64,000 nt of DNA from a virus (Duplodnaviria > Heunggongvirae > Uroviricota > Caudoviricetes). The DNA is taken from IMG/VR virus record IMGVR_UViG_2684623171_000005; one strand, given 5' to 3'. Positions 48,001 to 51,000 of the stretch are shown here, piece after piece (the first letter of the stretch is position 1; each line of letters opens with the position of its first letter). A program made the position numbers.

Positions 48001-51000
48001 TCAATGGCTGCAACCATTGAGGCTTCTAAATTACCAGTTAACCACGAGAAAACTGATATGACTAGTTTAGCAATTGCAGATCGCACAATCAATGTTCCAT
48101 TCCACGGAACAAATCTCTTTTTGGTTGGAATTAACAATGAGCCTTATGTTCCTATGAAGCCTGTTGTTGAAGGTATGGGGATGGTTTGGGCTGCTCAATT
48201 TGTTAAGTTAAAACAGAGGTTTGTCAAAGGTATTTCGGAAATCGAAATACCTTCTGCTGGCGGTAAACAGTTAATGACATGTCTTGCCTTTCGTAAATTT
48301 GCGGCTTGGCTTTCAAGCATTCAACCAAACAAAGTCCGCCCTGAAATCCGCGACAAGGTAATCCAGTATCAGGAAGAGTGTGACGATGTGCTCTACGAGT
48401 ACTGGACTAAAGGCCATGTGATTAACCCGCGCAAAGCTAAAAAGGCATTGCCGGGGAAAATCACCACTGAACAGCAGGAAGCCATTAAACAACTCGTCAT
48501 GAGTCGCGGTCAGTCTCTGCCAAAAGAAAAACAGGCGAAGGCGATGATCACCATGTGGTCGTCACTGAAATCTCATTTTGGGTGTTCATACAAAGAAATC
48601 AGCGAGGAGCAGTTTACCGAAGCTCTGTCACTTGCTGCTCGCGTTCCGCTTGAAGGAGAGTTAATCGGCAAACAAGAGAAGAGCACCAACGAGCTTTCCG
48701 CAAAAGAAGCAAACAGCCTTGTATGGCTATGGGATTATGCCAACCGCTCACAGGCATTATTCCGCGAACTGTATCCGGCGCTAAAACAAATTCAATCGAA
48801 CTATTCCGGCAGATGCTACGACTACGGTCATGAGTTCTCGTATGTTATTGGAATGGCGAGAGACGTTTTAATTAATCACACACGAGATGTTGATATCAAT
48901 GAGCCAGACGGACCAACGAATCTTTCCGCATGGATGAGACTTAAGAATAAAGAATTACCTCCTTCACCGCATCACTACTAACAGATTGCCAACGAAATGA
49001 CCCAGCTTCGGCTGGGTTTTTATCAGGAGTTCTCATGCTCTATAGCAATATATTGGCGCACGCCCGGCGATGTGCACCAGCGGAGTCGTGCGGCTTCGTG
49101 GTGAGAACGCCGGAAGGGGAAAGATATTTTCCCTGCGTGAATATCTCCGGTGAGCCGGAAGATTATTTCCGGATGTCGCCGGAGGACTGGCTGCGGGCAG
49201 AAATGCAGGGGGAGATTGTGGCACTGGTCCACAGCCACCCCGGTGGTCTGCCCTGGCTGAGCGAGGCCGACCGGCGGCTGCAGATAAAAAGTGCACTGTC
49301 CTGGTGGCTGGTCTGCCGGGGGGAAATTCATAAATTCCGCTGTGTGCCACATCTGACAGGACGGCGCTTTGAGCACGGGGTGACGGACTGTTACACGCTG
49401 TTCCGGGATGCCTACCATCTGGCGGGAATTGATATGCCGGATTTTGAGCGTGAGGATGACTGGTGGCGCAACGGTCAGAACCTTTACCTGGACAATATGG
49501 CGGTCACCGGCTTTTACCGGGTGCCCCTGTCCTCTGCACAGGCGGGCGATATCCTGCTGTGCTGCTTTGGCGCATCGGTGGCCAATCATGCCGCCATATA
49601 CTGCGGCAACGGTGAACTGCTTCACCATCTGCCTGAACAACTGAGTAAACGGGAGAGGTATTCCGAAAAATGGCAACGACGAACGCATTCAGCCTGGCGT
49701 CACCGCCACTGGCACGTATCTGCCTTCACGGGGATTTACAACGATTTGGCCGCCGCCTCAGCCTGTATGTGAACACGGCAGCGGAAGCCATCCGTGCCCT
49801 GTCGATGCAGATGCCGGGATTCCGCCGTCAGATGAACGAAGGCTGGTACCAGATACGTATTGCCGGTGATGACACGGCACCGGAGGCGGTGTACGCCCGT
49901 CTTCACGAACAGCTGGGTGAGGGAACGGTCATCCACATTGTGCCGCGACTGGCCGGGGCCGGAAAGGGTGGACTGCAGATTGTGCTGGGGGCGGCGGCCA
50001 TCGTGGGGTCGTTCTTCACGGCCGGGGCATCAATGGCGTTATGGGGTTCAGCCCTGGCAGCCGGTGGTTTTTCTGCCACCACGATGCTGTTTTCACTGGG
50101 GGCCAGCATGATACTGGGCGGTGTGGCCCAGATGCTGGCACCGAAGGCAAAAACACCGGATTACCGCGCAACGGATAACGGCAGACAGAACACGTACTTT
50201 TCCTCACTGGACAACATGATTGCTCAGGGGAACCCGATGCCGGTGCCTTACGGTGAAATGCTGGTTGGCTCACGGCGAATCTCCCAGGACATCAGTACCC
50301 GTGATGAAGGCGGTGACGGGAAGGTGGTGGTTATCGGGCGGCAGGCATAAAAGCGAAAAAATCCCGCAGTGACCGAAGGCTGCGGGAACAGAAAATGAAG
50401 ATTAACCACAGGGAGTTTTGTTTTTATTGGCCCGAAAAAACTGTAACGCCCGGGAATGATATCTGCCACGGGGGCGTACAGAAAATGTGAAGAAATTCAG
50501 AAATTTTATTCCGTCATGACACAGGCACCCTCCGGGGTGCCTGTCGTTTTTGGGGCATAAACAGATTCAGACATCAGACATCAGACATCAGACAGGAGAG
50601 GGGGACCGAGTGGGTAAAGGTGGCGGCAGGGCACACACGCCGGTTGAGGCAAAGGACAATCTTAAGTCCACGCAGATGATGAGCGTGATTGATGCCATTG
50701 GTGAAGGGCCGATTGAAGGTCCGGTGAAGGGGCTGCAGAGTATCCTGGTGAACAAAACCCCGCTGACGGACACGGACGGTAATCCTGTGATACATGGTGT
50801 GACCGCGGTCTGGCGCGCCGGGGAGCAGGAGCAGACACCACCTGAAGGCTTTGAGTCCTCCGGGGCGGAAACCGCACTGGGCGTGGAAGTGACGAAGGCA
50901 AAGCCGGTGACGCGCACCATTACGTCCGCGAACATTGACCGCCTGCGGGTCACCTTCGGGGTGCAGTCACTGTTGGAGACCACCTCAAAGGGCGACCGTA

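Follow-up and report, generated by a model that had tools for sequence, protein, structure and literature searches.

Among the prophage-encoded small RNAs (sRNAs) of pathogenic Escherichia coli, PasB and the RNAs EcOnc22, EcOnc23 and EcOnc24 are the closest described counterparts of the element treated here, which lies between the tail genes I and J in a 64,000-nucleotide (nt) stretch of tailed-phage DNA (IMG/VR record IMGVR_UViG_2684623171_000005; Caudoviricetes), hereafter called the window. PasB was described in enteropathogenic E. coli (EPEC) O127:H6 strain E2348/69 (Pearl Mizrahi et al., 2021) with the help of RIL-seq, in which interacting RNAs are ligated and then sequenced, as an 83-nt RNA from the minus strand of NC_011601.1 (1466343-1466261; Northern probe AATCCCGCAGTGATCGCGGAGCT), encoded between E2348C_1436 and E2348C_1437 (PMC8550237, Table S6) and taking part in 37 RIL-seq interactions (PMC8550237). 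The EcOnc RNAs come from enterohemorrhagic E. coli (EHEC) O157:H7 strain Sakai, in which CRAC (cross-linked RNA analyzed as cDNA) with Hfq gave peaks at 2902714-774 (EcOnc22), 2676643-704 (EcOnc23) and 2166694-753 (EcOnc24), all on the plus strand (Tree et al., 2014, PMC4104026, Table S2); they measure about 85 nt on Northern blots and are destabilized in a delta-hfq background (PMC4104026). Altogether, PasB and the EcOnc RNAs are described as RNAs of about 83-85 nt that bind Hfq and lose stability without it (PMC8550237; PMC4104026). The PasB table lists no EHEC homologue (PMC8550237), and the preprint on the Pas RNAs mentions neither EcOnc nor a promoter or CRP (Zhu, Shabalina & Storz, 2026).

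In the window, gene I ends with a TAA codon at 50348-50350 and J begins with GTG at 50610, the 20 N-terminal residues of J resembling those of lambda J; the flanking open reading frames (ORFs) match the Pfam families Lambda_tail_I (gene I) and FNIII-A_GpJ (J). An earlier note on this DNA had drawn attention to a terminator-like hairpin and a heptamer repeat in the intervening spacer, which it gave as 260 base pairs (bp) and which measures 259 bp (50351-50609). The flagged feature is real and mostly already known, and the hairpin and the repeat are ordinary-looking in themselves; they form the edge of a conserved 259-bp cassette present in Shiga toxin (Stx)-type prophages. To judge from its sequence, the main cargo of this cassette is a gene of the known Hfq-binding sRNA family on the opposite strand. 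The earlier note had overlooked this gene together with its putative promoter, CRP-like site and terminator. The cassette comprises the following features.

50351-50609, no strand: I-J intergenic cassette, 259 bp (ORFs, Pfam matches on the flanks, homologous spacers)
50356-50433, minus strand: predicted sRNA gene of the PasB / EcOnc22-24 family, about 78 nt, antisense to the tail operon (homology, position, covariance model)
50356-50386, minus strand: predicted intrinsic terminator of the sRNA, stem CCCGCAG/CTGCGGG (50363-50369 paired to 50380-50386) followed by A and U6 (50361-50356) (folding)
50440-50445, minus strand: putative -10 hexamer TACAGT of the sRNA promoter (57-sequence alignment A3)
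50483-50504, core 50486-50501, no strand: CRP-like site AAATGTGA-AGAAAT-TCAGAAAT (pattern and conservation)
50521-50551, plus strand: the flagged hairpin, stem-loop 50521-50544 and T-run 50547-50551 (terminator scan, folding)
50567-50594, plus strand: heptamer array (TCAGACA)x4 in the untranslated J leader (Tandem Repeats Finder)
50594-50612, plus strand: J ribosome-binding region, consisting of GGAGAGGGGG, a 5-nt spacer and the GTG start (sequence, homology of the J N-terminus to lambda J)

The predicted sRNA gene opposite the tail operon

Position, strand, homology and terminator all agree with membership in the PasB / EcOnc22-24 family. E2348C_1436 and E2348C_1437 are the I (end 1466255) and J (start 1466496) genes of prophage PP6, and the spacers of the window, of E2348/69 and of three Sakai prophages align with one another; the homology to PasB is direct, and the window aligns to the E2348/69 spacer throughout. 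Sixteen relatives, all sharing less than 90% identity with the window copy, were used for a covariance model; it matches 50356-50432 on the minus strand over its full length (58.9 bits, E 1.3e-12), which is the only significant match in the window. The window copy shares 77% identity with PasB and likewise 77% with the Sakai type. Read on the plus strand, its I-proximal end is AAAAAATCCCGCAG-N10-CTGCGGG, which on the minus strand becomes a stem-loop followed by U6 and ends 5 nt from the I stop codon. This terminator is kept in all relatives, with compensatory variants such as CCCACAG/CTGTGGG in strain 3-72 and CTCCCGTAATA/TATTACGGGAG in OkiPb01710, and folding together with the covariance model points to a conserved single-stranded core, AACUCC...UUAAUCUUCAU. 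We read the window copy as an unannotated, divergent PasB-family gene that is predicted to yield an Hfq-binding RNA of about 80 nt, and its likely 5' end was placed from the RNA-seq end in E2348/69 and the -10 element.

The relation of PasB to the EcOnc RNAs hinges on the genome record to which the Sakai peaks refer. The peaks of EcOnc22, EcOnc23 and EcOnc24 lie in the I-J spacers of prophages Sp15, Sp14 and Sp11, respectively, whose tail genes are on the minus strand, and they keep an identical offset from J. In the current Sakai record (NC_002695.2) AgvB1 is found 137-146 bp higher than its listed peak, and stx2A starts at 1267107. We take the stx2A start in the old record to be 1266965, and the genome presumably gained 128 bp between the record versions. 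The coordinates of Table S2 refer to the older record, with a shift of about +137 to +146 bp at 1.27-1.94 Mb; at face value they would put the Hfq peaks on the hairpin and the heptamers, a placement that the record shift seen at AgvB1 and stx2A rules out, and read against the current record they point at the wrong features. Once shifted by +128 to +142, all three peaks come to lie on the 80 nt of the spacers nearest to I, the segment homologous to PasB, and because they do so EcOnc22-24 and PasB appear to be one family. The PasA homologue, used as a second gauge of the offset, gave an ambiguous result.

Other prophage sRNAs were considered for the same locus. Rfam 15 returned no family for positions 49500-51500 at E values up to 10, apart from a chance-level snoRNA match inside J (E 1.2), so that the spacer does not hold AgvB, AsxR or STnc100; the PasB family has no model in Rfam 15. 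AgvB and AsxR are moreover located at the PR' site and not in the I-J spacer. HnrS (EcOnc10-12), a multi-copy prophage sRNA of 66 nt, was likewise rejected, with EcOnc11 lying about 5 kb from AgvB1 in Sp10, outside the tail region.

The conservation of this segment could also be ascribed to a 31-codon ORF on the plus strand (50395-50490, MKINHREF...), which would encode a small protein with the minus-strand RNA as its antisense regulator, in the manner of type I toxin-antitoxin systems. Many variants indeed keep the ORF start ATGAAGAT with the purine-rich stretch before it, and they resemble one another in the first ten codons. However, the ATG is replaced by ACG or deleted in several otherwise conserved variants (the L037, L013, L071, L048, L010 and L008 types), ORF length varies between 14 and 41 codons and the C-termini are unrelated, the peptide lacks hydrophobic character, and the conservation in this part fits the single-stranded core of the sRNA. 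With its start codon lost in relatives and neither length nor C-terminus conserved, the ORF was rejected as a gene, and the toxin-antitoxin reading seems to us hardly credible.

The sRNA gene is preceded by what looks like a promoter of its own. Most of the loci compared here were gathered by means of a 23-mer that abuts the plus-strand hairpin; alignment A3 contains 57 distinct spacers, of which 54 come from IMG/VR, one is that of the window and two belong to more distant E. coli prophages, and a second alignment of spacers contains six sequences. Throughout A3, positions T1, A2 and T6 of the -10 hexamer are invariant and the middle three vary (TACAGT, TAGTGT, TACTTT, TACCGT, TAGATT, TACTGT), and the hexamer is located 5-7 nt upstream of the reported 5' end of PasB in E2348/69. 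The invariant TAnnnT pattern marks a putative sigma-70 -10 element, of which it is the signature.

Further upstream, the pattern AATGTGA-N6-TCANA occurs once in the window against an expectation of 0.03. Compared with the CRP consensus TGTGA-N6-TCACA, the left half is perfect and the right core agrees in four of five positions. TGTGA and TCA are invariant in the 57 sequences and in 55989, with a variable 6-nt spacer between them; 55989 was not gathered via the neighboring 23-mer anchor, yet it keeps both half-sites. The spacing between this site and the -10 hexamer is free of gaps in nearly all aligned sequences. Its center (50493.5) and the upstream edge of the putative -10 are 48.5 bp apart, against 49.5 bp in the lac promoter, and relative to the likely start the center is at about -60.5 or -61.5. 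Class I sites are centered near -61.5, -72.5, -82.5 or -92.5; the CRP-like site is close to the first of these positions, and we predict that it serves as an activator site for the sRNA. PasB is more abundant in overnight lysogeny broth (LB) than in exponential growth in Dulbecco's modified Eagle medium (DMEM), and the CRP-repressed sRNA Spf is five-fold higher in DMEM (PMC8550237), a contrast that fits CRP activation of PasB as circumstantial evidence.

In the mechanism that we propose, transcription of the sRNA of about 78 nt would begin at a promoter of its own, run against the direction of the tail genes and end at the intrinsic terminator beside the I stop codon. Most likely it would act in trans in the lysogen, via the conserved single-stranded core. 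Pairing of PasB-like RNAs with the J leader was tried as a candidate target and set aside: for three cognate pairs it was no better than for shuffled sequence, and the duplex energies look unreliable.

The hairpin and the heptamer array upstream of J

In lambda (NC_001416), the end of I (15444) and the start of J (15505) leave a gap of 60 bp that itself contains a hairpin, so that the adjacency of the two genes stated in the earlier note is only approximately true. The note's idea of inserted spacer DNA was sound, as there are about 200 bp of extra DNA compared with lambda, and this extra DNA corresponds to the predicted sRNA gene with its promoter and CRP-like site. The hairpin, which had been counted as part of the insertion, is not specific to it, since lambda has a hairpin at the equivalent position.

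The hairpin of the window, ACAGGCACCC-TCCG-GGGTGCCTGT, has 10 pairs (7 of them G-C) instead of the 9 first reported, a 4-nt loop and the tail CGTTTTTGGG according to the terminator scan, and its stem-loop and T-run have the anatomy of an intrinsic terminator, as had been noticed. Folded in isolation it reaches -23.5 kcal/mol (z = -4.2 against shuffles), and its RNA tail reads CGUUUUU, the tail of most relatives being UGUUUUU or UGUUUUC. Seen from the predicted sRNA gene, it is on the far side of the CRP-like site, at 87-110 bp upstream of the likely sRNA start, and the T-run of a terminator is present on the plus strand only. The hairpin is near-invariant in relatives: 7 of the 10 pairs never vary, and the variation consists of one C-G to U-A double change in one lineage, with single-change intermediates, and one A-U to G-U change.

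Spacers of the 55989 type (343-355 bp) carry another strong plus-strand terminator in this place, CCCCGGTATC-TGCT-GATACCGGGG with a T-rich tail (-23.6 kcal/mol), and the lambda gap forms AAACCGCC-UGCG-GGCGGUUU with a U-rich tail at about 15465-15490 (1466-1490 in our locus L214; -16.5 kcal/mol, z -4.9). The lambda and the window hairpins are both GC-rich and on the sense strand, have a U-rich tail and are placed just upstream of the J ribosome-binding site; the lambda hairpin differs by its unrelated sequence and shorter stem, and lambda possesses neither the sRNA gene nor the CRP-like site nor the repeat. With hairpins at the equivalent place in lambda and in 55989-type spacers, the position of a hairpin before J is a conserved trait of lambda-like tail operons. 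We know of no function assigned to the lambda I-J hairpin, and a literature search on its function retrieved nothing relevant.

Sense-strand hairpins with T-runs also follow L (47378), J (54107-54126) and lom (54782-54803) in the window, and further strong terminator-like hairpins on this strand occupy the late-operon intergenic positions 46532-46551 and 41603-41621.

Most likely the flagged hairpin acts as a Rho-independent terminator of the ordinary kind, at which RNA polymerase lacking modification by the Q antiterminator would halt short of J and the genes that follow; in lytic growth, polymerase modified by Q would pass through. The unmodified polymerase may originate in an antirepressor insert located between L and K or at spurious starts; downstream of that insert, the hairpin is the first strong plus-strand terminator.

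The L-K insert (47370-49034) places an immunity or anti-immunity module within the tail operon. Its minus strand encodes a ribbon-helix-helix repressor similar to Arc (47386-47730; Pfam Arc, 1.8e-20) and its plus strand an antirepressor of the P22 type (47935-48981; P22_AR_N, P22_AR_C), with divergent promoter-like sites at 47740-47815 and a hairpin with T-run at 47378-47395.

Alternatively, the hairpin could be the 3' end of a second, sense-strand sRNA of the Hfq type, made of the conserved U-rich AAAUUUUAUUCCGUCAUGAC, the hairpin and the U-tail, which together form a classic module for Hfq binding, and either started locally or cut from the I 3' untranslated region. The 45 nt before the hairpin are U-rich and as conserved as the hairpin, which with its U-run is a good terminator, and a sense RNA could have been overlooked in the Sakai data, in which peaks less than 100 bp from a coding region were dropped (Tree et al., 2014, PMC4104026), the site being 60 nt from J. 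Against this, the scan of the spacer plus strand found no sigma-70-like promoter for a sense sRNA or for J, and the alignment has no conserved TAnnnT there. Much of the conserved stretch is accounted for by the CRP-like site, and the stretch is less conserved in the loci gathered without the 23-mer (3-72, OkiPb01710, 55989). In addition, the rows listed from the EPEC RIL-seq tables include no sense-strand RNA from the spacer (PMC8550237). A sense-strand sRNA is therefore an unlikely explanation in our view, and we retain the terminator as the preferred one.

Between the hairpin and J, the heptamer array consists of 4.0 copies of the unit TCAGACA (period 7, 100% matches) and its 3' end is at the Shine-Dalgarno (SD) sequence GGAGAGGGGG; the three to four copies of CAGACAT counted previously, (CAGACAT)3 followed by CAGACA, are the same as (TCAGACA)x4. 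A perfect array of 28 nt is unexpected by chance in 64 kb. In the 101 loci with enough flanking sequence, the heptamer-type leader mostly has 2 copies, and 3 and 4 copies also occur: 3 on one leader background and 4 on two, one of which is that of the window. With these longer alleles on three backgrounds, there are at least three separate expansions. A pattern of 5 copies had no exact match in IMG/VR, where none exceeds 4. The J leaders of the E2348 and OkiPb01710 types have no repeat and an ATG start.

Such an array could be thought of as a contingency locus, that is, a phase or rheostat switch in which slippage tunes the translation of J, the repeat acting as a C/A-rich enhancer or as a spacer between hairpin and ribosome-binding site. 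Near-identical phages do in fact differ in copy number, with independent expansions on at least three leader backgrounds, and the A/C-rich array sits directly 5' of the SD sequence and is predicted to be single-stranded. A check suggested beforehand was whether the number is fixed among relatives; it varies (2, 3 and 4), and to this extent the idea of a variable element survives. The proposed modulation of J, however, is not supported. While the array is a polymorphic perfect repeat, as in contingency loci, its placement alters neither the frame nor promoter spacing nor the geometry of the ribosome site: it is outside the coding frame and upstream of the SD sequence, the distance from SD to start is unchanged, and the scan found no promoter-like site spanning it. 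Copy numbers range only from 2 to 4 with 2 dominant, the predicted accessibility of SD and start codon is flat (predicted unpaired fraction of the SD 0.55-0.63 for 1-6 copies, the array itself being unpaired), and other J leaders work without a repeat. We consider a contingency switch improbable. The array probably is a slippage polymorphism, expanded from the common 2 copies to 4 in the lineage of the window, with little or no effect on J as far as the folding model can tell, although it may have a modest tuning role. Heptamer number could nevertheless be useful as a small typing marker among close Stx phages.

A more elaborate scenario would unite all parts of the cassette into a nutrient-sensing control point for the host-range protein, in which a CRP-activated sRNA pairs with the late tail mRNA, the hairpin caps the J fragment and the heptamer leader sets translation. 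The sRNA is perfectly complementary to the I-J spacer of the late tail mRNA. If this were true, pairing upon induction would direct the processing of that mRNA, the hairpin would stabilize the fragment containing J, and the dosage of J, hence tail assembly or host range, would be tied to host metabolism and to a slippage-prone repeat. We regard it as a very long shot.

Distribution and exchange at the I-J junction

The cassette is widespread. A 260-nt query (50351-50610) was compared by blastn with 5426 complete E. coli genomes. Homologues occur in 1296 of them, at a median of 3 places per genome (maximum 10), and nearly all are chromosomal. They are also present in 151 phage records, mostly of Stx1a-, Stx2a- and Stx2c-converting phages; matches of 100% or 99.7% include Stx2a_F349, Stx2a_WGPS4, phage 2851, phage 1717 and YYZ-2008. 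Many of the matches in phage records are 14 nt shorter than the query, which is the length of two heptamers. Among the phage records listed, nothing is annotated inside the spacer beyond the flanking tail genes. In a collection with one genome per species, the conserved 23-mer matched solely a 460-bp contig (NZ_FWPT01000051.1, locus L127) of a Parendozoicomonas haliclonae assembly; this is most likely contamination with an E. coli prophage and thus uninformative on spread outside E. coli.

The junction itself has a mosaic structure: the sequence types seen at the I 3' end, in the PasB region and at the J 5' end combine with one another in many ways, as judged with segment boundaries set at crude fixed offsets. 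Among phages whose I gene is 97-100% identical, at least three forms of the junction exist: the hairpin type of about 250 bp, the 55989 type of 343-355 bp, with its different terminator and roughly 100 bp more, and a type of 863 bp. The last of these contains, between the sRNA promoter region and J, an opposite-strand gene for a Cu,Zn superoxide dismutase lipoprotein (sodC; Pfam Sod_Cu, 3.9e-32). Compared with the window, this insert uses the same I-J slot and the same opposite strand; its protein cargo of about 600 bp is absent from the window, and in the sodC-type spacers the CRP-like site and the plus-strand hairpin are replaced. With sodC and PasB-type cargo at one slot, the I-J junction is a general site for opposite-strand inserts and the exchange of modules.

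A sodC-type slot is seen in our locus L132 at 2182-3050 (IMG/VR 2529292904_000012) and in about 20 similar loci; the protein begins with MKCKIIAAIAMLTAASC..., and the gene has its own terminator, followed by a PasB-like segment.

The earlier note had proposed a recombination joint at which a different J allele was grafted on. The reassortment of types bears this out in part, in that the junction is mosaic; the mosaicism is general and not focused on the block that contains the hairpin. A specific version of this idea would take the hyper-conserved 70-bp block from the CRP-like site to the hairpin as a patch of homology, through which recombination among co-resident lambdoid prophages swaps J alleles. 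It has some appeal, in that types to the left (PasB region) and right (J 5' end) of the block combine variously (mid type 12, for instance, with J types 2, 3 and 4), spacers with flanks that are 20-40% different have a near-identical block, and the junction holds alternative cargo in other phages. On the other hand, types reassort between the I 3' end and the PasB region as well, the typing relied on fixed offsets with crude boundaries, and the pattern of invariant and variable positions within the block matches a protein-binding site plus an RNA hairpin, which argues for selection on function. We find the patch of homology a doubtful explanation.

In our preferred reading, the spacer is probably a "moron" of about 200 bp, conserved and with transcription of its own, that is joined to an ancestral pre-J leader; within the spacer lie the predicted sRNA gene, a terminator-type hairpin and a probably near-neutral array. 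Several observations weigh against it or parts of it. The expression data come from two sRNA variants, each 77% identical to the window copy. Start site, promoter and CRP site are themselves predictions, and a center at -60.5 is 1 bp off the classical -61.5. The CRP-like site is absent in sodC-type spacers and so is not needed for the sRNA family everywhere, and the comparison of exponential DMEM with overnight LB differs in growth phase as well. Covariation support for the hairpin is thin because it is almost invariant, an invariance that partly stems from collecting loci by the 23-mer. The hairpin and the preceding TTTTATTCCGTCATGAC stretch are more conserved than a generic terminator needs, so that they may do something more specific, and phages without the antirepressor insert offer a terminator no obvious client transcript.

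What follows for Stx-type prophages is that their I-J junction is a conserved slot for opposite-strand inserts and that the phage lineage of the window (Stx2 phages such as 2851, 1717 and YYZ-2008) carries a predicted, unannotated divergent sRNA gene of the PasB family. The conserved -10 and CRP-like site offer a testable hint at the timing with which this sRNA, multi-copy and associated with pathotype, is produced. The flagged hairpin and repeat matter little, the former being of a kind common in the late operon and in lambda, the latter having no predicted effect. Four points appear to be unstated in the cited papers, namely the equivalence of PasB and EcOnc22-24, the -10 with its CRP-like site, the variable heptamers and sodC at the slot; these new points on the cassette are incremental findings.

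Elsewhere in the window, a 162-bp tandem repeat at 39058-39650 (3.7 copies, 97% identity), which also shows a weaker sub-periodicity of 75 bp, probably corresponds to repeated domains of a head or tail protein. Rfam places isrK at 20662-20738 and C4 antisense RNA at 20764-20847, after which a 30-bp tandem repeat of 3.1 copies occupies 21092-21185. The other Rfam matches at gathering score are an ALIL pseudoknot, the lambda cIII thermoregulator, three tRNAs and STnc100 (spans 14528-14644 and 6865-6923 on the minus strand, 24527-24767 and 26178-26389 on the plus strand). The ALIL pseudoknot is a frameshift element found in insertion sequences of the IS3 family. An ORF at 54814-56133, downstream of the lom-like gene, contains two copies of a 45-bp repeat (55765-55855) with 9-bp repeats of collagen-like GGx-type codons.

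Comparison with known prophage sRNAs

The PasB locus and the window have in common the I-J slot, the opposite strand, the stem CCCGCAG/CTGCGGG with its U-run next to the I stop codon and the core UUAAUCUUCAU, at 77% identity over about 80 nt. They differ in the 5' third of the RNA and in the terminator loop, and the J leader on the PasB side has no heptamer repeat. The two have no exact 28-nt word in common, so that the genome search of the 2026 survey, with a word size of 28, would not pick up the window variant. The EcOnc22-24 loci resemble the window in the architecture of the cassette, including the plus-strand hairpin, and differ by having 2 heptamers instead of 4 and 77% identity in the sRNA part.

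A broader likeness exists to AgvB, AsxR and STnc100/PasD, STnc100 being related to PasD (Zhu, Shabalina & Storz, 2026). These too are short Hfq-binding "moron" sRNAs with their own promoter and terminator, situated between conserved lambdoid late genes and present in multiple copies in EHEC and EPEC, but they occupy another slot, downstream of Q/PR', and their sequences are unrelated to that of the predicted sRNA in the window.

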